A stretch of 64,000 bases of DNA from an uncultured Gammaproteobacteria bacterium (GTDB taxonomy: Bacteria > Patescibacteriota > Microgenomatia > Levybacterales > GWA1-39-11): NCBI GenBank assembly GCA_964504535.1, contig CAZDED010000002.1, forward strand, positions 82,673 to 146,672, read 5' to 3'. A program made the position numbers and the translations under genes. Below are positions 27,759 through 55,910 of the stretch, piece after piece. The notes below the pieces were generated by a model. The model was not told the DNA's origin. It saw only the letters and a program-made list of their open reading frames with translations, and made no database searches. Position 1 is the stretch's first letter. Each line of letters starts with the position of its first letter.

Positions 27759-28694
27759 ATGAAGGTCGATATTGTAATCCCAAACTTTAATGGTGCTCAT
27801 TTAATTGAGCAAAACCTTCGTAGTGTAGTAAATGCCCTACAACCTTACGAAGGAAAAGTAATTATTGTTGATGATGGGTCAACGGCAGAAGAACAAGAAA
27901 AATTAAGAAAATTTGTTGGGAATTTTGGGGATAAGCACAGAGTAGAGCTGATAGTAAAAGAAAAAAATTCAGGTTTTTCCTCAACCGTAAATACCGGGGT
28001 TAAAAAATCCGAAGCAGAATTTGTCGTACTACTTAATAGCGATGTGGTGCCGAGAGCAGGATTTCTAAAAAGCCCCCTAGAATCACTTTTAAAGGATGAT
28101 AATCTTTTTGGAGTTGGTTGTATGGATGAGAGCGTTGAGGGTGATAGAAGGGTGAATAGGGGTAGAGGTTTGGCGCATTGGGGTAAGGGTTTTTTGCACC
28201 ACAGCAGGGGAGAAGTAAATAAAAGTAATACATTTTGGATATCTGGAGGAAGTAGTGTTGTCAGAAGGCAACTATTTATGAAGCTTGATGGGTTTGATGA
28301 AATATACGCACCATTTTATTGGGAAGACATAGATCTTTCATATAGAGCTCAAAAAGCCGGCTACAAAATCCTATTTGATAATACATCAGTTGTTGAGCAC
28401 TATCATCAGGAGGGAGCGATAAAAAAACATTATAACAGTGAAAGGATTACAACCATTTCTTACAGAAATCAAATCATTTTTATATGGAAAAACATAACGT
28501 CATATAAATTATTGCTAAACCATATATTTTATCTTCCAATAAATTTTTTTAGTGCAGTTTTTAGGTTTGATTGGCCATTTATTTCGGGATTATTTCTTGC
28601 GGTGTCACTCTTTCCTGCTATAATTAATAGACGTTTTACGCAAAAAAAATTGTTCAAGATCTCAGATGAGCAGGTAATTCGAAACAACTCATGA
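27759..28694 (+). CDS. GT2 glycosyltransferase
   Basis: VDIVIPNFNGAHLI…VIIVDDGSTAEE…LLNSDVVP…WEDIDLSYR. Confidence 0.7.
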   Translation: MKVDIVIPNFNGAHLIEQNLRSVVNALQPYEGKVIIVDDGSTAEEQEKLRKFVGNFGDKHRVELIVKEKNSGFSSTVNTGVKKSEAEFVVLLNSDVVPRAGFLKSPLESLLKDDNLFGVGCMDESVEGDRRVNRGRGLAHWGKGFLHHSRGEVNKSNTFWISGGSSVVRRQLFMKLDGFDEIYAPFYWEDIDLSYRAQKAGYKILFDNTSVVEHYHQEGAIKKHYNSERITTISYRNQIIFIWKNITSYKLLLNHIFYLPINFFSAVFRFDWPFISGLFLAVSLFPAIINRRFTQKKLFKISDEQVIRNNS

Positions 28695-29422
28695 ATTCAT
28701 CAAAAAAGACTTTATCTATTGTTATTCCTGTATATAACGAAGAAAAAACAATTGGCACAGTGTTGTCAAATCTTGCCGTACTTAACATACCCAATGTGAT
28801 AAAAGAAATAATCGTAGTGGATGATGGATCAGGTGATAGATCAAAAAAAATTGTTGAGGGTTTGAAAAGCAAAGTTAAGGGTCTTCGATTTATTTCACAC
28901 GAGAAAAATAGAGGAAAGGGAGCTGCCGTCCAGACGGGACTTGAGGCAGCAACCGGTGATGTCCTTATGGTTCAGGATGCCGATTTAGAGTATGACACAA
29001 ACGATATTCCAAGATTACTAAAACCAATTCTTGATAACAAGGCAAATGTTGTATATGGTACCAGGCTGAGAAGAATGCCTAACGTAAAAAAAGAAGAAAA
29101 AACGTGGAGGTTTTTATTGCATTACATCGGAAACAGATGGCTCAGTCTTGTTACGAGTATATTATATTTTAATTGGGTGACAGATATGGAAACGTGTTAC
29201 AAACTTTTTTCAAAAGAATCTTTTAAGGGAATAACACTAAAATCAAAAACGTTTGATTTCGAACCCGAAATTACCGCTAAATTTTTAAAAAAAGGACTAA
29301 AAATACTTGAGATAGATATCAATACACGACCAAGAGGATACGATGAAGGTAAAAAGTTACACACCTTTAGAGATGGGTTTAAGGCACTATGGACCCTTGT
29401 GAAGTTTAGATTTATATCATGA
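28691..29422 (+). CDS. GT2 polyprenyl-phosphate glycosyltransferase (DPM1/GtrB-like)
   Basis: LSIVIPVYNEEKTI…IIVVDDGSGDRS…QDADLEYD. 243 aa. Confidence 0.8.
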   Translation: MNSSKKTLSIVIPVYNEEKTIGTVLSNLAVLNIPNVIKEIIVVDDGSGDRSKKIVEGLKSKVKGLRFISHEKNRGKGAAVQTGLEAATGDVLMVQDADLEYDTNDIPRLLKPILDNKANVVYGTRLRRMPNVKKEEKTWRFLLHYIGNRWLSLVTSILYFNWVTDMETCYKLFSKESFKGITLKSKTFDFEPEITAKFLKKGLKILEIDINTRPRGYDEGKKLHTFRDGFKALWTLVKFRFIS

Positions 29423-32374: not shown

Positions 32375-34322
32375 AATTTATATGTACAATTTATTCTCGC
32401 CTAGTTTCTTGTTCTTTTTTCTATACTCCTTTATTGCAATTTTCTTTTCTGTATATATACCGGGTAGTGTGGCGCTACGATTTTCAAAACTTAATCTGTC
32501 TCTTTTCTCATATATTGTTCTATCAGTAATCGTTGGAACTTCTCTGTGGGTTTTACAAGGATTTTTATTTGGTTTTATGAATGTTAGATTTATAACGTAT
32601 GTTTATGTGGGTGTCCTCTTTTTATTTTGGATACGTAATTTTCAATTTCGTTCTTTTAAATTGCCATTTAAAAGAACGGTAATTTTTGCGGTTCTTTTAA
32701 TAACATTTGGGGTCATAACACAAAATATACCAGCATTTTTTATGGGATCGGTAACAGATAAAGGTGTTTCATTCTGTTGTGTGGATGCAAGTGACAGTCT
32801 TTATTTTGCCTCACTCAGTCAAGAAGTAAAACGCACTATCCCTCCGCAGGAACCTGGCCTGGCCGACGTAACAGTAAAAAATTATCACTATTTATCAAAT
32901 ATTTTTGTTGCCGAGTTATCTCGAGTATTTTTCATCCCCTTACACATCTTACAATTTCAAGTTTCAGTATTATTTTTATCAGTTATGTTGGGGCTTGCCG
33001 CTCTATCATTTGGATTGGCGGTCGTAAAAAATTGGAAATATTCGCTATGGTTAGTATTTTTCTTGTATTTTGGAGGAGATTTTATTTGGCTTGTTTTGCT
33101 AATTCTCAATAAAAGTGTAAATCCATTTGTCATGAGTTCGCTGGAGGATGGAGCTAAATTTTTGAGCAATCCTCCTCGCGCTTTTGCTATTGTGCAGTTT
33201 TTTGGCGCACTTGTTCTTTTGTATTCATGGTTACAGTCAAAAAAAACACTTCTCTTAACTATAATTCTTGGAATTGTATGTGGTACCCTAATAGGGTTCA
33301 AAGTATATCTGGGGATCTTTGTTTTGTCAGGTCTTGCTGTGCTTTGCCTATATCAAATTTTAAGAAAAGAATTTGATGGATTACGGCTTTTAATTATTGC
33401 CGGTATAGTTTGTCTCATACTGTACCTACCCGTAAATGGTAACGCCGGTGGGATATATTTTACAGGCTTTTGGTCTTTTGAAAATTTCATATCTCAGCCA
33501 TATCTAAAGCTTAGTAACCTAGAATTGGCTAGAAGGATATTTATTGCTGATAACAAGATTCTGAAATCATATTTTTTCGAATCAATATTTATACTTGTCA
33601 CAATCTTTTCTTTTTTTGGTTCTAAAATCATTGGGGTAGTACAATCAAAGAAATCTATATCTCTTATTCCGTTTCAACTGCATATATTTCTATTGTCTGG
33701 GATTGTTGTAAGTTTTATTTTAGGATTTTTTTTCCAACAGACTTCGGGTGGATCAAATACATTTAATTTCATAGTTAATGTGTTTATAGTTGGAAGCGTT
33801 TATACTGCACTCTCTGCGTTTTTTCTTACATCATTAAAAAAACCAGTTGCTATCATGCTCGCAGCAATTATCATTGGGTTGACCGTACCAAGAGTAGTGT
33901 ATGAAACATATCGCAGTATTCATCGTCTTATAAACGGTCAGTATCAATCGGTAACTCCTTTTCAGCTGAGGGCTTTTGATTTTTTGAGGCATCAGACGAG
34001 GGGTAGAACTTTGGTTGACCGGACTGTTTTTGGGCTTGATGCGAGTAGTCCGTACGTTGCTTTTTTTGTAGATCAACCGATGTACTTGTCAGGTGTTCAG
34101 ATACTGGAAAGCCATGGTCTGAACGTATTTACAAAATCATCAAAAGTTGCAGTTATGATGGATCCACTAAAAGTTGAGCAAGCAAGAAACCTGTTTTTGA
34201 CAGAGAAAATTAAATATTTTGTGATTGGTAATTCAAGCCCTATTGCAACGGTTTCTGCGCAATTTTCAAAAGTCATATATTCAAATACTGAAGTCTCTAT
34301 CCTCCTGATTGCACACTATTGA
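32367..34322 (+). CDS. Large polytopic membrane protein of unknown family
   Basis: 651 aa, TM helices throughout. No recognised motif. Confidence 0.45.
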   Translation: MSRIYMYNLFSPSFLFFFLYSFIAIFFSVYIPGSVALRFSKLNLSLFSYIVLSVIVGTSLWVLQGFLFGFMNVRFITYVYVGVLFLFWIRNFQFRSFKLPFKRTVIFAVLLITFGVITQNIPAFFMGSVTDKGVSFCCVDASDSLYFASLSQEVKRTIPPQEPGLADVTVKNYHYLSNIFVAELSRVFFIPLHILQFQVSVLFLSVMLGLAALSFGLAVVKNWKYSLWLVFFLYFGGDFIWLVLLILNKSVNPFVMSSLEDGAKFLSNPPRAFAIVQFFGALVLLYSWLQSKKTLLLTIILGIVCGTLIGFKVYLGIFVLSGLAVLCLYQILRKEFDGLRLLIIAGIVCLILYLPVNGNAGGIYFTGFWSFENFISQPYLKLSNLELARRIFIADNKILKSYFFESIFILVTIFSFFGSKIIGVVQSKKSISLIPFQLHIFLLSGIVVSFILGFFFQQTSGGSNTFNFIVNVFIVGSVYTALSAFFLTSLKKPVAIMLAAIIIGLTVPRVVYETYRSIHRLINGQYQSVTPFQLRAFDFLRHQTRGRTLVDRTVFGLDASSPYVAFFVDQPMYLSGVQILESHGLNVFTKSSKVAVMMDPLKVEQARNLFLTEKIKYFVIGNSSPIATVSAQFSKVIYSNTEVSILLIAHY

Positions 34323-34354
34323 AATGTTACCTATACTATCAAGAGAGCTCGTAT

Positions 34355-36031
34355 ATGGTCAGAACTTATTTCATCAGGTATTGGGTAGTTTTTGCGGTTT
34401 TCATCGTCGCACTTTTCTTAAGAACCTATAATTTGTCTGAAATACCAGTTGGCCTTCATGGAGACGAGGCTAGTATCGGTTACACAGCATATTCTCTTCT
34501 CAATACACTTCACGATCAGAATGGTAAGTTCTTGCCAATCGCAATAGATCAATTTGGAGATTTTAGGCCAGCTGGGTATCATTATTTGGATATTCCATTT
34601 GTGGCTCTTCTTGGCCTCACTGAGTTTGCGGTAAGGCTTCCGGCAGCACTTTTTGGAAGCCTGGCTGTAGTTGCTATCTATCTACTGGTTTTTGAGCTTT
34701 TTGAGAATAGAAAAATAGCCGGGTTGAGCTCAATACTTTTGGCTGTGCTCCCGTGGGACGTAAATATTTCCCGTGCAAGTTCTGAGAGTGTAATAGCCAC
34801 TTTCTTCGTGATTTTAGGTGTATATTTTTACTTAAAATTCGTTAAAAGAAAGGCTTTTTCTTCTCTGTATCTAGGATTAAGCAGTGTTTTATTTATTGTT
34901 AGTTTTTTCTTTTATCATGCACATAGGTTTTTTGTTCCAGCACTGTTTCCATTTCTTTTTTTGATTTCTTTTTTTGCTTTTCGTCCCTCAAGAAGAAAAA
35001 TTATTGGTGGTATAGTTCTGTTTGGCGTTGTTCTTCTTGGATTGTCTTTCTTTGTTCTATTTGGACAAGGAACAGGGCGTGCATCTGAGGTGAGTCTTCT
35101 TAGTATTCCTGGTGGTACAACGAATCTAAAACAGGCTATGGATGAAGAGGGAACACTCAACCCTCTTATAAATAGGTTTTACAATAATAAATTAATTTAT
35201 TACGGAAGATTTTTCGTAAATTTTTATTCACAGCATCTGTCAGGGGACTTTCTTTTTGTTAATAACGGGAATCCAATACGCTACAGAATCCCATTTACCG
35301 GAAATCTCTATTTTGTTATGCTTCCATTCTTGATCCTTGGATTTGCCTTTTTGCTTTCACAAGGATTGAAAGAGAAGAAATATCATTATTTGTTGCCTAT
35401 TGTCTGGTTACTTATTGCACCGGTTCCTGCAGGGCTTACATGGGAAGATTTACCTAACGTTATACGTGCAAGCATTTTGATCCCCGCCTTATTAATAGTT
35501 ACCGCTTTCGGTTTCCATGAGGCAGTGTCATTATTTAAGAATAAAAAAATAAAAACACTCATTATTGTTGTCTCAGGATTGCTTCTTGCGCATAATTTCC
35601 TATATTTTTGCCATAACTATTACTGGAGATCAAAGATTCATGAGCCATGGCACAGGAGTGGAGCCGAAAAAGAATTATTGTTCCAGGTTGGACAAATAGC
35701 AAAACCAACCGACTCAATAGTTATGACTACAGAGAGAAACAATAACCTTATCTTTTACCTTTTTTATAATAAATTTGATCCAAAGAAATTCCAGGAAATA
35801 GGATCACCGAAAGAACACGATGGGTTGAAGTTTGAAAATATTACATATACTGGAAATTCATGTCCTTTAAGGGGTGAGAGTGAAGAGATTGTCACAGTGA
35901 TACCAGATACTATTTTTGTAGACAAAGAGGATTGCCCACTACCGAAAAATTCAGAAATCCTTAACACAATAAAATTTTCTGATGGGGTTCCTGCCTTCAA
36001 AATTGTAAAAACAGTCGATGTTAAAAAGTGA
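34355..36031 (+). CDS. Family A GT-C glycosyltransferase, PMT/ArnT-like (GT39-type)
   Basis: GLHGDEASIGYTAYSLL…FAVRLPAALFG. The track's ORF begins at a TTG at 34319; ATG 34355 (MVRTYF) is the more plausible start. Confidence 0.65.
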   Translation: MVRTYFIRYWVVFAVFIVALFLRTYNLSEIPVGLHGDEASIGYTAYSLLNTLHDQNGKFLPIAIDQFGDFRPAGYHYLDIPFVALLGLTEFAVRLPAALFGSLAVVAIYLLVFELFENRKIAGLSSILLAVLPWDVNISRASSESVIATFFVILGVYFYLKFVKRKAFSSLYLGLSSVLFIVSFFFYHAHRFFVPALFPFLFLISFFAFRPSRRKIIGGIVLFGVVLLGLSFFVLFGQGTGRASEVSLLSIPGGTTNLKQAMDEEGTLNPLINRFYNNKLIYYGRFFVNFYSQHLSGDFLFVNNGNPIRYRIPFTGNLYFVMLPFLILGFAFLLSQGLKEKKYHYLLPIVWLLIAPVPAGLTWEDLPNVIRASILIPALLIVTAFGFHEAVSLFKNKKIKTLIIVVSGLLLAHNFLYFCHNYYWRSKIHEPWHRSGAEKELLFQVGQIAKPTDSIVMTTERNNNLIFYLFYNKFDPKKFQEIGSPKEHDGLKFENITYTGNSCPLRGESEEIVTVIPDTIFVDKEDCPLPKNSEILNTIKFSDGVPAFKIVKTVDVKK

Positions 36032-37508
36032 TAAAAAAAAATCATTCGATTGGGTCTTGATAGGAATTATAGTTCTCTCGGCAGTCTTAAGATTTTATAA
36101 CTATGGTAGTAGATGGGGTCTTGCTTATGATCAGGCGTGGTTTGCAGTCATTGCTCGCCATGCACTTGCAACCCTACAACTTCCGTTCTTAGGTCCTTTT
36201 GCTTCCGGAGGTCCATTTCAGACTGGTGGGGAATGGTTCTGGATAGTAATGATTGGGACAATGCTTAACCCACTGAGCGTGATTTCTCCGTGGGTTTTTA
36301 TAACCTTGCTTTCGATTTTTCAGGTGTATCTCCTTTATGTACTTGGTAGTCATTATGGTGGAAAAAGTTTGTCTTATATTCTTGCTTTTTTAGGTGCCGT
36401 ATCCATATCCCAAGTTCTTCAGGCAACAAATCTTACCAATCAAATGCCGTCATCATTGTGTGCATCATTGCTCCTTTTGGCTATTGTTTTATACCTAAAG
36501 AAAGAAAAAAACAGATATCTTTTCTTTTCCGGATTTGCTGTCGGGTTATCATCCTCGATTCATCTTCAAGGTGTTCTTCTTCTCATACCTTTATGTGGAT
36601 TTTTAGCACTTACGAAAACAATTAGCCCAAAGAAATTATTGCTGGTTGGGATAGGAGTATCTTTGCCTTGGGTTCCAGTACTACTAATTGATATGCAGAA
36701 TAATTTTTACAATACCAAAAATATGCTTATGTACTTTACTAATTCCCAAAGTAAAGTTTCGTATGATGAACTCGGGAGAAGGTGGCTGACTTTTATAACG
36801 GATTATGTTCCTTCGTCATGGGGAAGAATAGTGGGAGGGAACATATTTTTTGGATATTTAGAAATATTTTTAGTAGGTCTAACGTTTCTTTTGGGAATTC
36901 TTAAAAAAGTAATAGATAAGAAATGGATGATAGCTGTGGTATCGACGATACTTATGACCATAGCCCTTCGATATATAAGGACACCACTTTATGAGAACTA
37001 TACTACTTTTATTCATCCATTTGTTCTCCTTTTGATTGCCTGGTCCATCTGGAATTTATACAAACGTCAGAGATTTATCGCCGTCATAATACTTGTGGCA
37101 ATAGTATCTTTTAGCGTATTTGCATTATGGAAAGATATTGGCAATAGTACTAATTTCACAAACATAACGACTAAAAGGTATGTTTTATTTTTGAAAAATA
37201 AATTCCCCAAGGAGAAATTTGCTATTTACGATTATGAATATAATAACAAGCAAAATACATTGCCTCTTGTTCTTTATCTTCAAACAGAAGGCCTATTGGA
37301 TGACAAGGGGCATAGAATTGGCATGGTAATCGTTGCTAATTCAAAAATTAGAATAGATCCGCATAAAACAATACATGGTGGTAATGGAGGATATCAGCTC
37401 GTTGACCTTACTGCATCTGAAAGCGCTGAGCTCCAGAAAGGGAGATGGGCATTTGTAAATCCTTCTGTCATTTACAATTCTGTACAATATTGGTACAAGG
37501 ATAAATGA
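36018..37508 (+). CDS. Family D polytopic membrane protein ('WDQ' family, GT-C-like, uncharacterised)
   Basis: 496 aa. GLAYDQAWFAVIARHA…PFLGPFASGGPFQTGGEWFWIVM. Paralogue of 40841..42106. Confidence 0.5.
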   Translation: MLKSDKKKSFDWVLIGIIVLSAVLRFYNYGSRWGLAYDQAWFAVIARHALATLQLPFLGPFASGGPFQTGGEWFWIVMIGTMLNPLSVISPWVFITLLSIFQVYLLYVLGSHYGGKSLSYILAFLGAVSISQVLQATNLTNQMPSSLCASLLLLAIVLYLKKEKNRYLFFSGFAVGLSSSIHLQGVLLLIPLCGFLALTKTISPKKLLLVGIGVSLPWVPVLLIDMQNNFYNTKNMLMYFTNSQSKVSYDELGRRWLTFITDYVPSSWGRIVGGNIFFGYLEIFLVGLTFLLGILKKVIDKKWMIAVVSTILMTIALRYIRTPLYENYTTFIHPFVLLLIAWSIWNLYKRQRFIAVIILVAIVSFSVFALWKDIGNSTNFTNITTKRYVLFLKNKFPKEKFAIYDYEYNNKQNTLPLVLYLQTEGLLDDKGHRIGMVIVANSKIRIDPHKTIHGGNGGYQLVDLTASESAELQKGRWAFVNPSVIYNSVQYWYKDK

Positions 37509-39163
37509 GGGATAATAGTATAAAATTATTAAAGAGTTATATGCAGAAAAAGATATTGTTATTATTTGGGATTGTTTTTGTTGCGTTCATTGTAAGGTTT
37601 GTTTTTCTTGGGAGCATTGCACCATCTTTAACGTGGGATGAAACCGCATGGGGATACAACGCTTATTCGCTAGGAATTGATGGAAAGGACGAATTCGGTA
37701 AATTTTTGCCGATGACATATCTTGAATCCTTTGGAGATTTTAAACCACCGGTGTATGCGTACCTTGACATTCTCCCTATTAAATTATTTGGCCTGACTGA
37801 GTTTGCAACCCGCTTTCCATCGGCATTTTTTGGAACGCTCACCGTTTTTCTGACATTTTTTCTTGTTAAAGAAATATTTGGTAAAGAAAAAGAAGATTTA
37901 GCGCTTATAGCCTCTTTGTTGTTGGCAATTTCTCCCTGGCATATAATGTTGTCCCGCGCTGCATTTGAGGCAAATGTTGCGAGTTTCTTTATTGTACTTG
38001 GTGTTTTTCTGTTTTTAAAAGCCGTGCGGGAAAGAATAGTCCTTCTTCCTTTTTCTATTCTTTCATTTGTTCTTGCTATGAATACATTTAATAGTGCAAG
38101 AATTGTAGTTCCGCTTCTCGGTATTTTGGTGATTATTGTATTTCATAAAAAACTCCTAAAACATATAAAAGTATCAGTAATTTCCCTCATTCTTGGTGTC
38201 GTGCTTTTAGTGCCCCTTATCAGTTTTATGGTTTCTCCACAAGCAAAATTAAGATTTAATGAGGTGAACATATTTACCGATATTGGCGTAATAGATAGAA
38301 CAAACCAGGAAATAAAAAATGATAATAATTCAATTTTCTCCAAAGTGCTGCATAATCGTAGATTTGCTTATGGAGTAGAGTATATCCATCACTATCTTGA
38401 TAATTTGGCTCCTCAATTTCTTTTCATTAAGGGTGATGGAAATCCTAAGTTTTCTCTTCAGGATGTTGGGCAACTATACATATGGGAAATCCCATTTTTT
38501 GTAGGTGGAATAATTTTATTATTTAGGAAAAGAGAAAAGCATTGGTGGTTAGTACCATTATGGTTATTGATTGGTATTGTTCCTGCGGGGTTTGCGAGAG
38601 AAACACCACACGCACTTCGTATTGAGTCTGCACTTCCTACATTTCAGATATTTACAGCAATTGGATTTTATTATTTTACAAAGTACCTTATAAAATTAAA
38701 GAACAAAAGAATGGGGATTGGGTCTCTATATGTTCTTGGACTTATCATTTTGTTTGGCTTTGTTTATTTTGTCCAAAATTATTTTTTCCATTATTCACAT
38801 GAATTTTCAGGAGAATGGCAGTATGGATATAAGGAGTCTATAGCATACGTATCTTCAGTGCAGAATAAATACAAGGATGTATATATAACAGAAAGCCTGG
38901 GAAGACCGTATGTGTACTACCTTTTTTATCAGAAATATGATCCAGTTACATTTCGTCAAGAAGCAGACATTTATAGAGAAGTTTTTGGTTTTGTACACGT
39001 TAAAAGTTATTCAAATCTTCACTATACCGACCAAATCGGTAAAATAAATAAAACTAATGCTCTTTATCTATCGACTCCGGGAGAAAAACCTGAAAATGCA
39101 AATACAATAAAAGAGTTCAAGTTATTGAATGGGCACACCGCTCTTGTTGCATACACCTTATGA
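37505..39163 (+). CDS. Family A GT-C glycosyltransferase, PMT/ArnT-like (GT39-type)
   Basis: SLTWDETAWGYNAYSLG…TEFATRFPSAFFG. 552 aa. Confidence 0.65.
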   Translation: MRDNSIKLLKSYMQKKILLLFGIVFVAFIVRFVFLGSIAPSLTWDETAWGYNAYSLGIDGKDEFGKFLPMTYLESFGDFKPPVYAYLDILPIKLFGLTEFATRFPSAFFGTLTVFLTFFLVKEIFGKEKEDLALIASLLLAISPWHIMLSRAAFEANVASFFIVLGVFLFLKAVRERIVLLPFSILSFVLAMNTFNSARIVVPLLGILVIIVFHKKLLKHIKVSVISLILGVVLLVPLISFMVSPQAKLRFNEVNIFTDIGVIDRTNQEIKNDNNSIFSKVLHNRRFAYGVEYIHHYLDNLAPQFLFIKGDGNPKFSLQDVGQLYIWEIPFFVGGIILLFRKREKHWWLVPLWLLIGIVPAGFARETPHALRIESALPTFQIFTAIGFYYFTKYLIKLKNKRMGIGSLYVLGLIILFGFVYFVQNYFFHYSHEFSGEWQYGYKESIAYVSSVQNKYKDVYITESLGRPYVYYLFYQKYDPVTFRQEADIYREVFGFVHVKSYSNLHYTDQIGKINKTNALYLSTPGEKPENANTIKEFKLLNGHTALVAYTL

Positions 39164-40839
39164 AATTATTGAAAAAACCTGTTTTTTTACTTATTGCGAT
39201 CATACTCTTGGCGGTAAGTCTTAGAACCTACAATATTGGCAAAGTACCAATAAGCCTTAATTGGGATGAAGTAGCTCTTGGATACAATGCATTTTCAATT
39301 CTTAAAACGGGGAATGATGAATATGGAAAATTCTTGCCGGTCGTTCTCCAGTCTTATGATGATTATAAGCCGGCGCTTTATGCTTATTTTGATATCCCAT
39401 TTGTTGCGATTTTAGGACTGACCGAAGCTGCTGTAAGACTTCCTTCTGCAACTGCTGGCGTAGCAGCGGTGTTTCTTATTTATTGTATCGTCTTGGAGCT
39501 TATGGGACAACGCAAGGTCCAACTCTTTGACCACGAAGTTGCTTCGACCTGGGTAGCTCTTGCAACTTCTTTTTTCTTGGCAATTTCTCCATGGCACATC
39601 CAATTCTCGCGAATTGCTTTCGAGTCAAATGTTGGTTTAACGCTAAATCTGTTTGCTTTCCTCCTATTTCTAAAGGCTCTAAAAAAACCAATGCTGCTTC
39701 CATTATCATTTATGGTTGCAGCATTAAATATTCATATGTATCAAAGTGAAAGAGTATTCTCTCCTTTGTTGATAATCATACTGTCGTTAATTTTTTACAA
39801 AAAGCTTTTGACTTTTAAGAAATGGGTATTTGTCTCTATTATTGCAGCTTTTATTGTAGCGTTACCGCTTATTGTCTACATTTTGACAAACAACAATGCA
39901 CTGATGCGGGCAAAAGGTGTTAGTGTATTTTCGTCCCAGGAATTGGTCTCGCGTTCCTCAAAAAAATTATTGCAAGACGATCTAACAGGAAACACTATCG
40001 GAAAAATATTAGACAACAGAAGACTAGAATTTGGAAAAGCGGCAGTTGCCGGGTACATCTCCCATTTTGACCTCAATTGGCTTTTTATATCGGGAGATAT
40101 TGCTCGCCACCATGCCCCTTTCATGGGTTTGCTTTATCTCTTTGAATTACCTTTGCTTCTTATCGGAATTTATGCTCTCATCTTTTTGAAGATAGAAAGA
40201 AAATATAAGTTGGCATTTTTTGCATACTTTCTACTAGTGCCTATACCTGCCTCTATTACAAGTGGGGTGCCGCATGCTGTAAGGACTTTAAATTTTGAAG
40301 GGACTTGGGAGTTATTTATTGCTCTAGGACTGATTGTTTCAATTCAATTTATCCTCAATCAAAGAAAAAAATTAATAAAAAATTGCTTTAAACTATTTGC
40401 TATTTTCTATTTACTTTTTACTATTTTTAACATTTCCTATTTCCTCAATCAATATTTCGTGCAGCTTAACTACTATGATGCAAAAGACTGGCTATATGGT
40501 TATAAACAGGCAATTTCATATGTTGATTCGGTTAACCATAAATATGACAAAATTATTGTAGAAAATACCTCACCGTTGGATCAGTCATATATGTTTTTCC
40601 TTTTCTATCTAAAGATTGATCCGGCATACTATCAGTCTTTAGGCGGTACAGCAAGCGGAGGTTTTAGAGAGACACACAAAGGATTTTATAATTATGTTTT
40701 CGAGCCATTATCAACTGCCAAAGAAACGGGGAGAATTTTGTTAGTTGGAAAGCCCTCCGATATTTCCGAGAGTGCAGGGGGTAAAAAAATAATTCTTTTC
40801 CCGGATGGTACTCCTGCAATTGCCATAGGAGAAAAGTAA
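39160..40839 (+). CDS. Family A GT-C glycosyltransferase, PMT/ArnT-like (GT39-type)
   Basis: SLNWDEVALGYNAFSIL…TEAAVRLPSATAG. 559 aa. Confidence 0.65.
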   Translation: MKLLKKPVFLLIAIILLAVSLRTYNIGKVPISLNWDEVALGYNAFSILKTGNDEYGKFLPVVLQSYDDYKPALYAYFDIPFVAILGLTEAAVRLPSATAGVAAVFLIYCIVLELMGQRKVQLFDHEVASTWVALATSFFLAISPWHIQFSRIAFESNVGLTLNLFAFLLFLKALKKPMLLPLSFMVAALNIHMYQSERVFSPLLIIILSLIFYKKLLTFKKWVFVSIIAAFIVALPLIVYILTNNNALMRAKGVSVFSSQELVSRSSKKLLQDDLTGNTIGKILDNRRLEFGKAAVAGYISHFDLNWLFISGDIARHHAPFMGLLYLFELPLLLIGIYALIFLKIERKYKLAFFAYFLLVPIPASITSGVPHAVRTLNFEGTWELFIALGLIVSIQFILNQRKKLIKNCFKLFAIFYLLFTIFNISYFLNQYFVQLNYYDAKDWLYGYKQAISYVDSVNHKYDKIIVENTSPLDQSYMFFLFYLKIDPAYYQSLGGTASGGFRETHKGFYNYVFEPLSTAKETGRILLVGKPSDISESAGGKKIILFPDGTPAIAIGEK

Positions 40840-40840
40840 C

Positions 40841-42106
40841 ATGACAAAATTTCTATTAAAGTATTTTTCCAACAAAACCACACTGTTGATTTTTATTCTT
40901 TTATTAATCGTTCAAATTTTTACCCGTTTTTCATACCCCGACACGAAAAGTGATTTTAGCTGGGATCAAATAGACAATGCATGGGCGGCAAAAAATATAA
41001 TTTATGATCATAAATTCCCATTGGTAGGAATGCAGGCGAAAGGAAATACAGGTTTTTATATTGGGCCCTATTATTACTATTTGATAACTCCTTTCTATCT
41101 AGCTACTGATCTTGACCCATATGCATCAATTGTTATAGCAGGATTTACAAGTATAATTATGTTTTTTCTGACCTACCTATTGGTAAGGGATATGATGGGT
41201 GAGAAAATTGCTTTATTTGCTACTTTTTTTGAAGTTTTTTCGTTCTATATTATCGGTCTTGACAGGACACAATGGCCTGTCAATCTTATTGCGCCCGTTT
41301 CGCTTATTATATTTTATTCGCTCTATAAAATTATGAACGGTAACGTACGGTATATACTGTTGCTAATTGCTTCATTTGGATTTTCACTTCACGTCCATTT
41401 TACTTCAGTATTTTATATTCCATTAATAATATTGTGTTTGCCTTTTTTTCCAAGAAAAAAACTATCGATAAAATATTTATTTTTATCGTTTCCAATACTA
41501 CTATTTTTTATCTTCCCGATAATTATTTCCTCATTTGGCAAAGGAAGCACTCATGTTCTTGGGTATCTTAGCAGTTCGTATCTGGGTTTTCATTTAAGGA
41601 GAGTTTTTCAAATAATTGGTGATGGTTTTATTGAATATGAAGGAATAGCTGATTTTCAATACTTCAAAAAAATAGGCTTATTATTGTTTCCTACATTTCT
41701 TTTAGTTTCTTTTATTGCGTTTTATAGAACAAGTAAAGTGTATTTAATATATCTCAGTTTAATTTGGGTCATTTTGCCGTGGCTATTTTTTGCCACATAC
41801 GGCGGTGAAATTTCAAATTATTATTTCTCAATAACTCGACCTGTCGTCTTGATATCATTAGCGTACCTTTTATATATTCTCTTCGAAAATAAAAAGATAA
41901 TCGGAAAGCTATCTGTATTTGTAATCCTCTTGCTGTATGTGTATGTCAACTCCAAACAATTCTTTGCATTCAAGGCTAGGGGACTTGGATATTACCGGGA
42001 AAAGGTGGATGAAAAGATTAAGAATGGAGTGGATATCGAATTTAGTCAGGGCAATCCCGAGTCATATCTCTATTTCATTAAGAAACAAAGATATGACAAA
42101 AAGTAA
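40841..42106 (+). CDS. Family D polytopic membrane protein ('WDQ' family)
   Basis: 421 aa. DFSWDQIDNAWAAKNIIYDHKFPLVGMQAKGNTGFYIGPYYYY. Aligns with the 36018 ORF. Confidence 0.5.
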   Translation: MTKFLLKYFSNKTTLLIFILLLIVQIFTRFSYPDTKSDFSWDQIDNAWAAKNIIYDHKFPLVGMQAKGNTGFYIGPYYYYLITPFYLATDLDPYASIVIAGFTSIIMFFLTYLLVRDMMGEKIALFATFFEVFSFYIIGLDRTQWPVNLIAPVSLIIFYSLYKIMNGNVRYILLLIASFGFSLHVHFTSVFYIPLIILCLPFFPRKKLSIKYLFLSFPILLFFIFPIIISSFGKGSTHVLGYLSSSYLGFHLRRVFQIIGDGFIEYEGIADFQYFKKIGLLLFPTFLLVSFIAFYRTSKVYLIYLSLIWVILPWLFFATYGGEISNYYFSITRPVVLISLAYLLYILFENKKIIGKLSVFVILLLYVYVNSKQFFAFKARGLGYYREKVDEKIKNGVDIEFSQGNPESYLYFIKKQRYDKK

Positions 42107-42159: not shown

Positions 42160-43224
42160 ATGAACAAGAGCAAGATATTAATCACGGGTGGAGCAGGGTT
42201 TGTAGGAACAAACCTCGTTAGTTTTTTACTGGGGAAAAAGGAATATGAAATAGTTGTTTTCGATAAATTGGATCATCATTCAGACGAAGAACAAGCAAAA
42301 AAAATTACATACGTTAAAGGCAACATTATTAATAAGTCTGATGTAGAAAAATTATTTGCTCAACATGCACCGTTTGAGGGGGTATATCATTTGGCTGGCG
42401 AGATGCCAAACAAACTTGCGGATGCAAAATTAATGATGCAGACGAATGTTGATGGAACATCAAATCTCATTTCAGAAGCAGTGAAATATAAAGCAAAGTT
42501 TTTTATATTTGCTTCAAGCAATGTGACTTATGGAATACCAATTGAACTCCCTGTAACGGAAAACACCCAACTTAAGCCTCTTGAGGTATATGGGAAGAGT
42601 AAGGAGGAGGCCGAAAAAGTCCTCCAGAAATACAACGGGAAAATAAATATCCAGATGTTCAGGTGCCCGGTTATAACCGGCGTAGGAAGACTTGGACTGC
42701 AGGCAATTCTGTACGAATTCATATCAGAAGACAAGAAGGTATATGTTCTAGGCGGAGGGAACAATAAATACCAGTTTGTTGACGTAGAGGATGTAGTGCA
42801 GGCAATGACGACAGCAAGCAAGATTAAAGGGTTTGACGTATATGTGATAGGGGCAGACGAAATCTTAACACTGCGTGAGTTATATCAAAAAGTTATTGAA
42901 TTTGCCGGCAGTAAATCAAAAATTGTATCACTCCCCTGGGGACCAGCCCTTTTTGCACTTTCAATTTTAGATAAAGTTAACTTTTCCCCGCTTGGAGTAT
43001 ATCAATACACTATGATGGGAAGATCCATTTACGCGGATACGACGAAAATAAAAAAGAAACTTTCCTGGAAACCTAAAAGAACAAATGCAGACACATTCAT
43101 AGAAAATTATAAATGGTATAAGAAAAATAAAGGAAATTTTGTTGTTATTGGCGGGAGTAAGTCTTCGCCAAATAAAAGTGTTCCAAAGATGGGGATTTTA
43201 AAGATTCTTAAAATGTTTTCATAA
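42160..43224 (+). CDS. NAD-dependent epimerase/dehydratase (SDR) family protein
   Basis: Rossmann fold ILITGGAGFVGTNLV and catalytic YGKSK (YxxxK). 354 aa. Confidence 0.7.
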   Translation: MNKSKILITGGAGFVGTNLVSFLLGKKEYEIVVFDKLDHHSDEEQAKKITYVKGNIINKSDVEKLFAQHAPFEGVYHLAGEMPNKLADAKLMMQTNVDGTSNLISEAVKYKAKFFIFASSNVTYGIPIELPVTENTQLKPLEVYGKSKEEAEKVLQKYNGKINIQMFRCPVITGVGRLGLQAILYEFISEDKKVYVLGGGNNKYQFVDVEDVVQAMTTASKIKGFDVYVIGADEILTLRELYQKVIEFAGSKSKIVSLPWGPALFALSILDKVNFSPLGVYQYTMMGRSIYADTTKIKKKLSWKPKRTNADTFIENYKWYKKNKGNFVVIGGSKSSPNKSVPKMGILKILKMFS

Positions 43225-43228
43225 TATT

Positions 43229-44872
43229 ATGAAGCATGTACATAAATTTCTGGTCGCTATTATAATTCTTGCAGCAATTCTTCGCCTTTTTGATCTTAAT
43301 GGTGTGCCTCCTTCTGCCTCACTCGATGAGTCTTCTATCGGGTATAATGCATATTCAGTCATCAAAACAGGAGGGGACGAATTCGGTACATTTCCACTCG
43401 TTTCTCAACGTGGATATGATGATTATCGTCGTTCAACCTATTTACTTCTTGTCGCGCCCTTTGTAGTTGTCATGGGGCTGAATGTTCTGGCTGTCAGACT
43501 TCCAGCAGTGATTCTTAGTATACTAACTGTTTGGGCGGTTTTTGAGATCGCTCGACTTTTGGTTAAAAAACCTTCTAAATTCAGTGATGAGTTAGCATGC
43601 TTTTCGGCATTTCTACTTGCGATTAGTCCGTGGCATATTTATATTTCTCGTATTGGGCATGAATCAAATGCTTGTCTTTCTTTTTTAGTATTTGCGATTC
43701 TTTTTTTCCTGAAAGGACTTGAAAACAAAAAACTACTGTTGGTTTCAGTTCTTTTCTTTGCTTTGTCTATGGTAAGTTACTATTCGGGGCAAGTCATCGT
43801 TCCTCTTCTCGTTATCTCATTGGCTGTAATTTATAGAAAAAAACTCTTAGAAATGATACTTGTTGACAAAAAATCCAAGATTGTAACTTTATTTGTTTTG
43901 TTGTTGGCAATACCTGTCGTGTGGTCCGTTTTTTCACCCGATGCTCTTATCCGCTTTCGCGGTACGAGTACTTTTTCACCGAGTTCACACGAGCAACTAT
44001 TTAAAGAAAGGGTGTTATTGCGCAATGAAGCTGTTGCAAAGCATGACCTCATTGGTAGCATTATCTACAATCAACGGTTGTTTCCTCTTGTTGTTTTAGC
44101 TCAGGGATATTTTGATCATTTTAATCCTCAGTGGTTATTCTTTAATGATTCTAACGGTATTTTTAAAGCTCCCCATATTGGGTTGTTATACCCATGGCAA
44201 ATTCCGTTCATATTATTCGGTTTGGTTGCCTTCCTAGTCAGTAAAAATGTCGGCATATCAATGAAATTTACAGTTTTGATATGGTTTCTATTGGGGGCAT
44301 TACCTGCGTCTATCGCAACACAAACACCACATGCGATGCGCTCATACAATATATTACCAACATGGGAAATATTTACAGCTTTTGGAATAATAACTCTGAA
44401 ATTTTTATTCTATAAATATAAATTGATAACCGGTGGATTAGTAGCTATTCTTGTTTGTTTTTCATTACAATCATTTTTTACGAATTACTTCGTTAATTTT
44501 CCGAAAGAGCATTCTAAGTCTTTCCAATATGCATATGGCAAATCACTGGGGTATGTCATCGCAAATCAGGATAAATACCAAAGAGTAGTAATCTCGAACA
44601 AAGATAATATGTTCCAGTCTTACATGATATTTTTGTATTACAGTAAATATGATCCAAACTTGTATCAAAAACAGGGTGGGACAATATCAGGTGGCTATGA
44701 AGCGACACACTTTTTCGGAAAATATGAATTTAAAGAAATTGATTGGACAAAAGAAAAAACATCAAACACTTTGTATGTAGTAAATCCTCAGGAAATACCC
44801 TCAAATGCTCAGGTATTATATGTAGGAAAATACTTAGATAATACAAAAGGGGCAATAGTTCTTACGCGTTGA
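43229..44872 (+). CDS. Family A GT-C glycosyltransferase, PMT/ArnT-like (GT39-type)
   Basis: SASLDESSIGYNAYSVI…LAVRLPAVILS. 547 aa. Confidence 0.65.
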   Translation: MKHVHKFLVAIIILAAILRLFDLNGVPPSASLDESSIGYNAYSVIKTGGDEFGTFPLVSQRGYDDYRRSTYLLLVAPFVVVMGLNVLAVRLPAVILSILTVWAVFEIARLLVKKPSKFSDELACFSAFLLAISPWHIYISRIGHESNACLSFLVFAILFFLKGLENKKLLLVSVLFFALSMVSYYSGQVIVPLLVISLAVIYRKKLLEMILVDKKSKIVTLFVLLLAIPVVWSVFSPDALIRFRGTSTFSPSSHEQLFKERVLLRNEAVAKHDLIGSIIYNQRLFPLVVLAQGYFDHFNPQWLFFNDSNGIFKAPHIGLLYPWQIPFILFGLVAFLVSKNVGISMKFTVLIWFLLGALPASIATQTPHAMRSYNILPTWEIFTAFGIITLKFLFYKYKLITGGLVAILVCFSLQSFFTNYFVNFPKEHSKSFQYAYGKSLGYVIANQDKYQRVVISNKDNMFQSYMIFLYYSKYDPNLYQKQGGTISGGYEATHFFGKYEFKEIDWTKEKTSNTLYVVNPQEIPSNAQVLYVGKYLDNTKGAIVLTR

Positions 44873-44884: not shown

Positions 44885-45661
44885 ATGAAAAAACTCTCGG
44901 TTGTTCTTGCAACTTTTAATGAAGAAGAGAATCTAGATAGGTGCTTGAGTGCCGTAAAGGATTTGGCTGATGAGATTGTTATAGTTGATGGGACTTCCAA
45001 AGATAAAACAGTTGAGATTGCCAAGTCATTTAAGGCTAAAGTCTTTGTTACAACCAATCCTCCCAATTTTCACATCAACAAGCAAAAAGCTATTGATCTT
45101 GCAACCGGAGATTGGATATTGCAACTTGATGCCGATGAGGTAGTGTCTAAGGGACTTTGCGAGGAGATAACTGACATTTTAAAAAACGATCCGGTAGAGA
45201 ACGGATACTGGATGCCAAGAAAGAATTATTTTTTAGGGAGATTTCTAATGAAGGGTGGTCAGTACCCTGACTACACGGTCAGACTTTACAGAAATGGAAA
45301 AGGAAAGCTGCCCCAAAAAGATGTACACGAGCAGGCAGTGATTGAAGGAAAAATAGGCTACCTTAAGGAGGCATTACTTCATTATCCCTATAAAGACTTC
45401 AATTTTTACGTTTCTAAATGGATGCGCTACAACCACCTTCTCGCTTCTCAAATACATGACGATTTAAAAAATAAGAATTTTATATTGCGTATTTACTATG
45501 GTTTTGCTTATGTTTTCGCAAAACCGGCGCACTGGATGTTGACTGCATACGGAAGGCATAAAGGGTTTTATGATTCATGGCAAGGTTTTGTATTTGCTAT
45601 AATGTCAGCACTACGTTTTCCAGTCTCTTACATTTTGTACCTACAACATAAGTATGAATGA
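44885..45661 (+). CDS. GT2 glycosyltransferase (KdtX/WaaE-like subfamily)
   Basis: LSVVLATFNEEENL…IVIVDGTSKDKT…QLDADEVV. Confidence 0.65.
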   Translation: MKKLSVVLATFNEEENLDRCLSAVKDLADEIVIVDGTSKDKTVEIAKSFKAKVFVTTNPPNFHINKQKAIDLATGDWILQLDADEVVSKGLCEEITDILKNDPVENGYWMPRKNYFLGRFLMKGGQYPDYTVRLYRNGKGKLPQKDVHEQAVIEGKIGYLKEALLHYPYKDFNFYVSKWMRYNHLLASQIHDDLKNKNFILRIYYGFAYVFAKPAHWMLTAYGRHKGFYDSWQGFVFAIMSALRFPVSYILYLQHKYE

Positions 45662-51029: not shown

Positions 51030-52187
51030 ATGAAAAAATATATTCATTTTGCACAACCACTTTTCGGAAGTGAAGAGAAAAAAGAGGTAATAAAAGCGAT
51101 GGATTCGGGTTGGGTAACATTGGGTCCAGGAACCCGTGAATTTGAAGAGCAATTCGCAAAATATACGGGTGCTAAATATGCAGTTGGTCTCAGCTCCTGT
51201 ACGGCTGCTCTTCACCTAGCTCTCATCGCAGCAGGAGTTGGTAGGGGAGATGAGGTAATAACCACTATTTTTACATTTGCAGCATCTATCAACCCCGTTC
51301 TTATTCTTGGTGGAAAACCTGTACTTGTTGATATTGATGAAAAAACTATGAATATTGATGAGAAGTTGATTGAGGCAAAAATAACAAAAAAAACCAAGGT
51401 TATTATGCCTATGCACTATGGTGGATACCCCTGCAATATGGATGCAATTAAAAAAATCGCGAAAAAACACAAATTGATCATAATCGAAGATGCGGCAACG
51501 GCAATTGGGACATCCTACAAGGATAAGAAGGTGGGAAATATCGGGGATATGACCTGTTTTTCTTTCCATCCCATTAAGAATATGTCCACAGGCGATGGTG
51601 GAATGGTGACCACTAACAATAAATTATTTGCAGAAAGAATTATGCTTTTAAGACTTCACGGGATGAGTAAAGAAGCATGGAAGAGGCATACTGCTGCCGG
51701 CTCATGGAAGTATGATATTGTTGAGCCTGGTTTTAAATACAATATGACTGACATTCAGGCTGCTCTTGGGAGAGTACAGCTTAAAAGATTGGATGGATTT
51801 ATAAAAATTAGAAAACAGTACGCGAAGATCTTTGATAGTGAGTTGTCGAAAATACCTGAAATAACTGTTCCTATTCATTCTAAGGATTCTGGTACAGCCT
51901 ACAATTTATATACAATAAGAATTGACACCAAAAATTTAACGGTAACTAGAGATGAAATAGTTGAATTACTAAAGCAAGAACAGATAGGGGTTAGTGTGTA
52001 TTACATCCCACTTTACGAATTTAGTTACTTTCAAAAGCACTTAAAACTTAAAAGTTCAGATTATCCACACGCAAGCGCTGTATATCAGAACATGATGTCT
52101 CTTCCTCTTTATCCCAAGATGACTCTGAAGGATGTTAACAGGGTGATAAACACGCTTTCAAAAATTATTATAAAACACCGCAAATGA
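51030..52187 (+). CDS. DegT/DnrJ/EryC1/StrS-family PLP-dependent sugar aminotransferase (WecE/ArnB/PglE-like)
   Basis: FGSEEKKEVIKAMDSGWVTLGP…SSCTAALHLAL. PLP-lysine region SFHPIKNMSTGDGGMV. 385 aa. Confidence 0.8.
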   Translation: MKKYIHFAQPLFGSEEKKEVIKAMDSGWVTLGPGTREFEEQFAKYTGAKYAVGLSSCTAALHLALIAAGVGRGDEVITTIFTFAASINPVLILGGKPVLVDIDEKTMNIDEKLIEAKITKKTKVIMPMHYGGYPCNMDAIKKIAKKHKLIIIEDAATAIGTSYKDKKVGNIGDMTCFSFHPIKNMSTGDGGMVTTNNKLFAERIMLLRLHGMSKEAWKRHTAAGSWKYDIVEPGFKYNMTDIQAALGRVQLKRLDGFIKIRKQYAKIFDSELSKIPEITVPIHSKDSGTAYNLYTIRIDTKNLTVTRDEIVELLKQEQIGVSVYYIPLYEFSYFQKHLKLKSSDYPHASAVYQNMMSLPLYPKMTLKDVNRVINTLSKIIIKHRK

Positions 52188-55850: not shown

Positions 55851-55910
55851 TGACAATAACCGATAATAGCATATTTACAATCTAAATAAAAATGAGTAAT
55901 ATCTATTATC

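Follow-up and report, generated by a model that had tools for sequence, protein, structure and literature searches.

Two GT-C Genes within an Operon-Like Array

The window, by which we mean the entire stretch of 64,000 nt analyzed here, carries 17 GT-C genes within 40 kb. D1 and D2, the subject of this study, lie between genes of a second group, family A (table 1). An initial annotation had described open reading frames of 496 aa (ORF 36018) and 421 aa (ORF 40841); both are present on the plus strand together with the peptides quoted from them, and the gene order given there, namely A (34319), D1, A (37505), A (39160), D2, epimerase (42160), and A (43229), is correct. Genes 34319 through D2 are joined end to end: the end of 34319 overlaps the start of D1 by 14 nt, the end of D1 shares 4 nt with 37505, a further overlap of 4 nt follows, and the stop of 39160 is separated from the D2 start by a 1-nt spacer. 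The codons at positions 36126–36137 of D1 translate to YDQA and those at 40961–40972 of D2 to WDQI, and we refer to the shared dipeptide as the D-Q motif.

Table 1. Location of D1, D2, Their Motifs, and Neighboring Genes in the Window
Feature	Coordinates	Strand	Evidence
GT2, DPM1/AglJ/PpgS type, candidate polyprenyl-phosphate-sugar synthase	28691..29422	+	NCBIfam, below cut-offs
Family A GT-C (PMT/PMT_2, D-E), directly upstream of D1	34319..36031	+	ORF, Pfam
D1, GT-C-fold glycosyltransferase, 496 aa	36018..37508	+	ORF, Pfam PMT_2, AF2, Foldseek, topology
D1 D38-Q39 motif, extracytoplasmic loop 1	36129..36134	+	Translation, conservation, alignment on family A D-E
Family A GT-C, "37505-type", first of conserved pair before D2	37505..39163	+	ORF, Pfam, orthologs
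Family A GT-C, "39160-type", second of conserved pair	39160..40839	+	ORF, Pfam, orthologs
D2, minimal GT-C-fold glycosyltransferase, 421 aa	40841..42106	+	ORF
D2 D42-Q43 motif, extracytoplasmic loop 1	40964..40969	+	Translation, conservation, alignment on family A D-E
NAD-dependent sugar epimerase/dehydratase, between D2 and next A gene	42160..43224	+	Pfam Epimerase 133.8 bits
Family A GT-C, "43229-type", often downstream of D2	43229..44872	+	ORF, Pfam, synteny
GT2 glycosyltransferase	44885..45661	+	Pfam GT2

D1 and D2 Are Distant Homologs Set Apart from Family A

Pairwise BLASTP analysis of D1 and D2 revealed only a weak match (e value 0.001, 25% identity over 181 aa), which is what might be seen if the resemblance were merely the shared composition of hydrophobic membrane proteins, or if both were transporters. 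However, each protein matches the HMM of the opposite family (5e-14 and 3e-12), and profile–profile comparison of the two families gave a probability of 99.0% (e value 6e-18, 369 columns), or 99.4% (e value 1e-21) with independently built alignments, whereas the control ORF 32367, which is polytopic and equally hydrophobic, reached a probability of only 0.1–0.2% against the D1 and D2 profiles. Fold searches with D1 and D2 returned GT-C proteins only, with transporters at a probability of 0.1 or less. The likeness claimed for the two proteins thus goes beyond composition, and a transporter fold, the outcome against which the initial annotation had set its proposal, is contradicted by structure prediction and fold search for both. 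Compositional likeness and transporter identity are refuted by the profile comparisons and fold searches, and we give this reading virtually no credence.

D1 and D2 are also related to family A. Against family A profiles they gave e values of 3e-8 and 9e-13, and homology to the family A genes of the window extends across the transmembrane (TM) core (e values 1e-5 to 1e-13); in D1, the alignment with family A also includes the C-terminal domain. The hhalign scores are 164–236 between the two D families, 36–110 between D and A, and 538–1156 among family A subfamilies, in agreement with the grouping of D1 and D2 apart from family A. The family A members of the window (30653, 34319, 37505, 39160, and 43229) are PMT/PMT_2 proteins encoded in the same operon-like array; they are 50–150 aa longer than D1 and D2 and always carry D-E (179 of 179 aligned) instead of D-Q. 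D1 and D2 are, therefore, distantly related to one another and to the neighboring genes, all encoding GT-C-fold membrane enzymes, and together with a third group, dx, they make up a loose D-Q superclade of Microgenomates bacteria that is distinct from family A.

Family Assignment, Fold, and Topology

The view that D1 and D2, set between GT39 genes, are a family of their own that resists classification did not hold: D1 matches the Pfam model PMT_2 (PF13231) with 35.7 bits, which passes the gathering cut-off of 26.1 bits, most D2 homologs with 40–76% identity carry a precomputed PF13231 match, and both proteins have the GT-C fold. D2 itself did not match any Pfam or NCBIfam model, and membership in PF13231 therefore applies to D1 directly and to D2 through its family only. 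In public databases, PF13231 is assigned to most homologs of both proteins, and names such as "glycosyltransferase family 39 protein" or ArnT-like are already in use for some of them. The Pfam model PMT (PF02366), which the A genes 34319 and 37505 match with 41–42 bits, was not matched by D1 or D2 at e values up to 1. Neither was a MIR domain found in them with Pfam, and their longest loops have 45–63 residues; as bacterial GT39 enzymes, to our knowledge, also lack MIR, this absence alone is not decisive against GT39. No sequence-level match to a solved relative, ArnT included, was found in PDB. Because all these proteins share the fold of enzymes that attach sugars outside the cell, D1 and D2 represent an uncharacterized branch of a known enzyme family rather than a new kind of protein.

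The AF2 model of D1 (pLDDT 89.8, pTM 0.89) matched only GT-C structures in Foldseek, ArnT among them with TM scores of 0.62/0.58. For both D1 and D2, 11 TM helices and a cytoplasmic N-terminus are predicted; D1 has a predicted C-terminal alpha/beta domain of ~100 aa on the outer face, and D2 has a helical tail of 45 aa and no soluble domain. The density of Lys and Arg is 30–36% in cytoplasmic loops versus 6–8% outside, and conserved polar loop residues number 27 on the outer face versus 0 on the inner in D2 and 34 versus 0 in D1. This is GT-C topology, comprising a cytoplasmic N-terminus, a loop-1 Asp after TM1, a positive-inside pattern, and outward conservation. We consider it likely that D1 and D2 are divergent, lineage-specific GT-C paralogs (Pfam clan GT-C, PMT_2/ArnT/PMT-like) acting as polyprenyl-phosphate-sugar transferases, each with its own step on a shared surface glycan.

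The top structural matches of D1 and D2 also include AglB, PglB, and STT3, and it has to be considered whether the two proteins use polyprenyl-diphosphate-linked oligosaccharides instead, as an oligosaccharyltransferase (OST), ligase, or polymerase resembling OST/PglB or WaaL/Wzy/EpsG. D2 has a faint EpsG match (e value 0.06), one homolog carries PF14897, and two Polysacc_synt (Wzx-like) genes, 16174 and 47719, in the window would encode flippases of the type that moves diphosphate-linked units. However, enzymes with monophosphate donors (ArnT, ALG12, and PMT) equal or exceed these structures in score, PMT_2 is the only family model whose cut-off was passed, the EpsG match lies far under its cut-off of 30.1 bits, and D2 lacks the soluble periplasmic domain that bears the acceptor-binding motif in OSTs. 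We regard a diphosphate-linked donor as improbable.

A Conserved Gln in the Loop-1 Motif

As the initial annotation had proposed, D-Q takes the position of D-E: in both profile alignments it is aligned with the D-E of family A. Among 40 homologs each, D42-Q43 never varies in the D2 family; in the D1 family, the same is true of Q39, with D38 retained in at least 90%. D-Q is further present in all 70 D2 genes that were aligned from genome loci, in 57 of 58 D2 representatives from the exhaustive search, and in 58 of 67 further representatives from that search. Gln in place of the usual Glu is a hallmark of the D-Q clade.

Across GT-C enzymes, the first Asp is the sole universally conserved residue of the motif, which reads D55/E56 in ArnT, D77/E78 in Pmt1, and D281/D282 in EmbA (PMC7801869). 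The second acidic residue is variably important: exchange of Glu for Ala inactivates POMT1 and Pmt4, and the effect is only mild for E78A in Pmt1 and E86A in POMT2 (PMC5016187). Given the inactivation of POMT1 and Pmt4, the Gln of D1 and D2 could reduce or change activity. It is conceivable in the extreme that activity was lost along with the Glu, leaving noncatalytic GT-C-fold scaffolds or substrate-presenting subunits like PIG-U/GAB1; neither protein has kept the canonical second acidic residue, and the loop-2 Arg, which never varies in family A and is retained in at least 90% of D2 homologs, is absent from D1, which counts against D1 being an active transferase. However, the universally required Asp is kept, the Gln is strongly conserved with no sign of drift, the dozens of conserved polar residues lie exclusively on the outer face, and catalytic GT-Cs outscore PIG-U by far in structural comparison, making a loss of catalysis very improbable. 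The Gln probably tunes donor or acceptor specificity without abolishing catalysis. The strictly conserved Asp-Gln variant represents a natural experiment on the role of the second acidic residue in loop 1 of GT-C enzymes.

D2 Belongs to an Ancient Gene Module

The proposed linkage of D genes to A genes is borne out by conserved synteny, strongly for D2 and more weakly for D1. An A gene is encoded at most two genes upstream of D2 in 47 of 57 loci, the pair of a 37505-type gene (orthologs with 45–66% identity) and a 39160-type gene precedes D2 in about 42 of the 57, and the order A-A-(dx)-D2 is found in 38. D1 adjoins an A gene in 22 of 42 loci, so that it is tied to the array only moderately. 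D2 is, therefore, part of an ancient, ordered, and translationally coupled module consisting of a 37505-type A gene, a 39160-type A gene, optional dx, D2, and a 43229-type A gene or dx.

Protein O-mannosyltransferases (PMTs) act as dimers of paralogs, and this is the basis of the idea that D1 and/or D2 might be obligate partners of the adjacent A-type enzymes in heteromeric complexes in the manner of Pmt1-Pmt2 or POMT1-POMT2, the catalytic contribution of the D-Q subunit being smaller or different. The adjacency of D2 to the same two A orthologs is fixed and ancient, overlapping stop and start codons suggest cotranslation, and the mild phenotypes of Pmt1 E78A and POMT2 E86A indicate that the Glu is dispensable in one partner of a PMT dimer. 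On the other hand, D2 retains the full set of conserved outward polar residues that an independently working active site typically has, only about half of the D1 loci have an adjoining A gene, and in many loci optional dx genes separate D2 from the A pair. Sequential GT-Cs are clustered in other systems too, and synteny, therefore, cannot separate a heteromer from serial steps. Such obligate partnership seems unlikely to us. Equally doubtful is the broader proposal that the ordered, coupled set encodes a multisubunit GT-C machine, or a GT-C assembly line, that is confined to Microgenomates, and that D-Q and D-E subunits join physically in it to make a surface glycopolymer peculiar to this lineage. 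The genomes of CPR/Patescibacteria are tiny, and these bacteria are believed to live on host cells; if this proposal were true, Microgenomates, with genomes of roughly 1 Mb and probably host-attached, would invest a remarkably high proportion of their coding capacity in a surface glycopolymer, to judge from the 17 GT-C genes counted here.

Pathway Context and Proposed Function

Candidates for further components of a polyprenyl-phosphate-sugar pathway are encoded in the window. GT2 28691 matches the NCBIfam models AglJ, PpgS, and dolichyl-phosphate hexose transferase near full length, and 28691 and 15428 both match AglJ, PpgS, and ArnC near full length, in all cases below curated cut-offs; by these matches, 28691 is a candidate for the enzyme that would make the lipid-linked donor. 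The GT2 encoded at 44885 shares 62% identity with the N-terminal half of protein P0173, in which an ortholog of this GT2 is fused in-frame to a D1 homolog (fusion gene called on ENA contig L078), and this fusion is, on the sequence level, a link of the Rosetta-stone type between the 44885 GT2 and D1. For the flippase step, the window offers the Wzx-like genes 16174 and 47719; a scan of small ORFs yielded no GtrA-family match. Genes resembling YfhO, GT87, and MptA/B occur in the same islands.

From the homology, fold, topology, motif conservation, and synteny observed for D1 and D2, we infer donor type, catalytic activity, and acceptor: most likely both are active polyprenyl-phosphate-sugar transferases, and the enzymes of the module most likely contribute one distinct linkage each to a common surface glycan or glycoprotein of Microgenomates (CPR). 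A cytoplasmic GT2 would load the sugar onto polyprenyl phosphate, the lipid-linked sugar would be flipped across the membrane, and D1, D2, and the A-type enzymes would each transfer a sugar to an acceptor on the outer face. Judging from their positions in the loops, the loop-1 Asp (D38 in D1, D42 in D2) would position or activate the acceptor, and the conserved basic residues of loop 4 (R254, plus H251 in D2) would hold the lipid phosphate.

We propose that D1 and D2 be annotated as GT-C (PMT_2-like) glycosyltransferases of a D-Q subclass, and not as hypothetical proteins or protein O-mannosyltransferases. The very dense array of extracytoplasmic glycosyltransferases and its deeply conserved gene order point to an elaborate surface glycan or glycoprotein with a possibly central role in keeping the envelope intact or in attaching to the host.

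Comparison with Known Systems

ArnT (CAZy GT83; PDB 5ezm/5f15), the undecaprenyl-phosphate-L-Ara4N:lipid A transferase, has the Pfam model PMT_2 in common with D1 and with most homologs of D2. Basic residues in the loop after TM7 are common to ArnT and both proteins, and like ArnT, D1 carries a small outer-face domain at its C-terminus, whereas D2 lacks a soluble domain. ArnT has 13 TM helices, compared with the 11 predicted for D1 and D2. Its catalytic Asp, D55, is located in loop 1 after TM1 (PMC7801869) as in D1 and D2, although the motif is D-E (D55/E56) in ArnT and D-Q here. An arn-type gene set is absent from the surroundings of D1 and D2, where the neighbors are other GT-Cs, GT2, GT4, epimerases, and Wzx-like genes. 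Patescibacteria are generally regarded as lacking an outer membrane, and lipid A is therefore not expected as an acceptor here, unlike for ArnT.

The GT39 protein O-mannosyltransferases (Pmt1/Pmt2/Pmt4, POMT1/2, and bacterial PMT) have their motif at the same position in loop 1. They are characterized by PF02366, D-E, the use of polyprenyl-P-mannose to mannosylate Ser/Thr residues of proteins, and, in the eukaryotic enzymes, a MIR domain within the large lumenal loop, whereas D1 and D2 have D-Q without a PF02366 match or MIR and are much shorter than eukaryotic PMTs.

The three-component paradigm of donor synthase, flippase, and GT-C is established (PMC11127046). The Gtr, CsbB/YfhO, and GT136 pentofuranose systems combine a GT2 that synthesizes a lipid-linked monosaccharide with a flippase and a GT-C acting outside (PMC11127046), and the same logic is proposed here. 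A fixed arrangement of four to five PMT_2-type GT-Cs has not been described in the literature that we searched. Several distinct GT-Cs acting in series on one polymer, as we propose for D1, D2, and their neighbors, are found in the mycobacterial Emb/Aft/Mpt assembly lines.

Homology and Fold of the D1 and D2 Proteins

The initial annotation described D1 and D2 as a related pair, and both open reading frames, with the peptides quoted for them, are found in the window. By pairwise BLASTP the relationship of the two proteins is marginal (e value of 0.001, 25% identity over 181 residues), and we therefore made family alignments from database homologs. Comparison of the D1-family and D2-family profiles gave a probability of 99.0% (e value of 6e-18 over 369 columns), a repeat with independently assembled alignments from genomic loci gave 99.4% (e value of 1e-21), and the D1 and D2 sequences of the window matched the HMM of the other family (5e-14 and 3e-12). 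As a negative control, the hydrophobic, polytopic ORF at 32367 reached only 0.1–0.2% probability against the same profiles. These matches and the near-zero probability of the control demonstrate that the homology, as proposed, is genuine rather than compositional, ruling out chance similarity.

Both families are also homologous to the flanking family A genes, which carry a D-E motif (e values of 3e-8 and 9e-13). D1 matches the Pfam PMT_2 model with 35.7 bits (cut-off 26.1); D2 itself has no Pfam match, and PF13231 is found on most of its homologs (40–76% identical). A search of NCBIfam returned no family for either protein. The pair belongs to the GT-C superfamily and, in the case of D2 through its homologs, to Pfam PMT_2, but lies outside GT39 proper, lacking a PF02366 match, the D-E motif, and a MIR domain. 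AlphaFold2, run on the alignments, gave confident models, with a pLDDT of 89.8 for both proteins and a pTM of 0.89 (D1) and 0.90 (D2). Their top Foldseek matches in the PDB are exclusively GT-C enzymes (ArnT, AglB, PglB, STT3, ALG9/12, Pmt4, Emb, and Aft), and transporter matches have a probability of 0.1 or less. The structure prediction called for by the initial annotation therefore yields a GT-C fold and clearly rejects an unrelated transporter; the reading of D1 and D2 as transporters or as accidentally similar proteins is refuted.

Among D1, D2, and dx, a third D-like GT-C group, hhalign scores from profiles of equal depth are 164–236, whereas scores between these groups and the A subfamilies are only 36–110 and the A subfamilies score 538–1156 among themselves. 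The grouping as family D is thus real but loose, a super-clade within PMT_2-like GT-Cs in which the distance between D1 and D2 is about the same as that of either one from dx. Proteins of the dx group are about 500 aa long, carry the motif F-D-[Q/V/H]-G-R-[D/E]-[YLM]-L, form at least three subfamilies (DQGR, DVGR, and DHGR), and are encoded on other contigs and not in the window.

Locations of features in the window and, where a contig is named, in relatives
Feature	Location (start only where single)	Strand	Length (aa)	Remark
D1	36018-37508	+	496	motif YDQA
D1 C-terminal stretch	37200-37280			KYP-x-x-KFAIYDYEY, residues about 391-421
D2	40841-42106	+	421	motif WDQI
Family A	10471, 30653, 34319, 37505, 39160, 43229
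PMT_2	5161
PTPS_related	6711, 12179 (weak), 13723, 19432
YfhO	8372, 21089, 25518
GT87-like	29419
Epimerase	42160
GT2, DPM1/AglJ/PpgS/ArnC-like	15428, 28691
GT2, related to P0173	44885-45661
DegT/DnrJ-type aminotransferase, then WecD/RffC-like acetyltransferase	51030-52900
Unclassified ORF in array	32367-34322	+	651	TTG start
ORF without Pfam match	3982-5139	+	385
ORF without Pfam match	52887-54380	+	497
ORF without Pfam match	54363-55856	-	497
ORF without Pfam match	59444-61579	+	711
dx examples	L001 8488-9999; L002 8501-9997			also in many of L006-L076, next to D2 on either side
P0173	L078 2180-4465		761	GT2-D1 fusion

The D-Q Motif and Conservation on the Outer Face

In both alignments with family A, the D-Q of D1 and D2 falls on the D-E column, as the initial annotation had claimed. 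D-E is present in all 179 aligned family A genes, and D-Q in all 70 D2 genes from genome loci. An exhaustive search (1.84 billion searched) found D-Q in 57 of the 58 representatives of D2 proper and in 58 of 67 more distant relatives. Among the 40 closest homologs of D1, the Gln is invariant and the Asp at least 90% conserved; more divergent D1-like genes vary (DD, DN, DH, EQ, and others). A metagenome scan for D1 gave D-Q in 73 of 73 sequences, a count that we discounted because the scan pattern itself included "AYDQ"; the unbiased figures are those from the 40 D1 homologs, the genome-locus alignments, and the exhaustive-search representatives. These counts indicate that the Asp is kept and that the Gln itself is under selection in the D-Q clade. 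In PMTs, replacing the Glu by Ala inactivates POMT1 and Pmt4, whereas in the heteromers that contain Pmt1 or POMT2 the same change in these subunits has only a mild effect (PMC5016187). Because no usable match came from searching the PDB, by sequence or by profile, with D1, D2, the two family profiles, and that of family A, the D-Q motif is not aligned directly with a solved structure; it is linked to structure through the coverage of the A genes by Pfam PMT, through the hhalign alignments, and through PMC7801869.

From the helices of the models, taken together with the positive-inside rule, we predict 11 transmembrane helices for each protein, the N-terminus lying inside and the C-terminus outside; Lys and Arg make up 30–36% of the short cytoplasmic loops versus 6–8% of the outer loops. 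Polar loop residues conserved at 90% or more number 27 on the outer face versus none on the inner face in D2, and 34 versus none in D1.

Conserved residues in the loops of D2 and D1
Loop	D2	D1
1	D42, Q43, D45, N46, K51, K67	D38, Q39, Q68, T69, E72
2	D141, R142, Q144, W145	N138, T140, N141, Q142 (no Arg)
3	T188	H182, Q184
4	H251, R254, Q257, D261	R254, R255
5	Y320, E323	Y319

This distribution is what one would expect of active enzymes whose site faces outward rather than of a decayed scaffold, and it speaks against D1 and D2 being noncatalytic subunits that merely retain the GT-C fold, a reading that we consider very improbable. D2 is essentially the transmembrane core alone; in the model, D1 ends in an alpha/beta domain of approximately 100 residues on the outer face that aligns with the corresponding C-terminal domain in family A. 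A conserved stretch within this domain of D1 (see the table of locations) weakly and recurrently matches PDB 4ycs, an uncharacterized protein, with both single sequence and profile, although not significantly (e values of 0.28–0.6).

Gene Order and Distribution of the Array

The gene order first reported, A (34319), D1, A (37505), A (39160), D2, epimerase, A (43229), is borne out. The array is tightly packed, with overlaps of 14 nt (A/D1), 4 nt (D1/A), and 4 nt (A/A), and a 1-nt gap lies between the stop of 39160 and the start of D2, which is preceded by an AGGAG 9 nt upstream. Promoter and terminator sites between 29000 and 46000 are no commoner than in shuffled sequence, so we base the operon inference on the gene overlaps alone.

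D2 was found in 74 loci in a scan of one genome per species, and all those with informative names come from Patescibacteria of the Microgenomates group (Levyibacteriota, Gottesman-, Shapiro-, and Roizmanbacteria). Many third-party MAG records bearing the array are titled "uncultured Gammaproteobacteria bacterium" (among L004-L076), and two D2 homologs (L014 and L041) lie on short contigs of MAGs labeled Pacearchaeota or Nanoarchaeota archaeon; these labels likely reflect placeholder taxonomy and mis-binning rather than the real distribution.

Upstream sequence of 4 kb or more is available for 57 D2 genes; of these, 47 have an A gene no more than two genes upstream, and 38 show exactly the order A-A-(dx)-D2. 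The A pair consists of a 37505-type followed by a 39160-type gene (best-match orthology, 45–66% identical) in about 42 of the 57 loci; an optional dx, directly upstream of D2 in 25, then D2, and then a 43229-type A or dx follow. In 19 of the 57, D1 is found no more than 10 kb from D2. In 80 metagenomic loci centered on D1, a 37505-type A immediately follows it in 17/52 and any A in 22/52, and the upstream gene is usually unrelated (38/50), so that D1 tends to sit at the 5' boundary of the array. The functional link with family A proposed initially has good support for D2 and moderate support for D1. A Pmt1/Pmt2-like heteromer of D1 or D2 with A-type partners would fit this synteny and the tolerance of a Glu-to-Ala change in one PMT partner; we nevertheless regard it as unlikely.

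The Surrounding Glycan Island

The window is one large glycan island, with nearly all genes on the + strand and an exceptional density of GT-C-clan genes, 17 in about 40 kb (5161-44872), which amounts to a very heavy investment for a CPR bacterium whose genome measures roughly 1 Mb. It also encodes several GT2 and GT4 enzymes, two Wzx-like flippases, epimerases, and an MBOAT protein. Two of the GT2s resemble polyprenyl-phosphate sugar synthases (DPM1/AglJ/PpgS/ArnC-like), nearly full length and below curated cut-offs. Extracytoplasmic glycosylation by a GT-C together with a flippase and a synthase of the lipid-linked donor is an established route (PMC11127046).

We consider it probable that D1 and D2 belong to a D-Q subclass of GT-C transferases, are active, and use polyprenyl-phosphate sugars as donors, with D1, D2, and the A-type enzymes each performing a separate step on a common surface glycan or glycoprotein. 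That the donors would instead be diphosphate-linked oligosaccharides appears quite unlikely. P0173, a database protein, is an in-frame fusion of a D1 homolog to a GT2 62% identical to the one encoded at 44885-45661 and may be a Rosetta-stone indication of cooperation between D1 and this GT2; it is known from one contig only (five member sequences in its cluster), and a frameshift or assembly artifact is possible.

Farther downstream, the DegT/DnrJ-type aminotransferase gene and the following WecD/RffC-like gene (NCBIfam 92.8 bits, below cut-off) suggest that the island provides for the synthesis of an acetamido-dideoxyhexose. The ORF at 32367 matches no Pfam or NCBIfam model and is excluded from families A and D by its hhalign probability; in L004 and L005, both close relatives, an unclassified gene likewise follows the 30653-type A in this position. 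Four other large ORFs have no Pfam match, and the two of 497 aa are convergent with an 18-nt overlap of their ends.

Comparison with Known GT-C Families

A literature search on GT-C, GT39, or mannosyltransferase in CPR/Patescibacteria returned nothing relevant, including no paper on such arrays in Patescibacteria. GT39 and ArnT-like labels on homologs are already in public databases, some being annotated as "glycosyltransferase family 39 protein" or "ArnT-like" in NCBI and IMG. What is modestly new is the conserved D-Q signature and the deeply conserved, ordered multi-GT-C module in Microgenomates. The known families closest to D1 and D2 are ArnT (GT83) and PMT (GT39), both of which have the GT-C fold. 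Gene context gives no support for an ArnT function.
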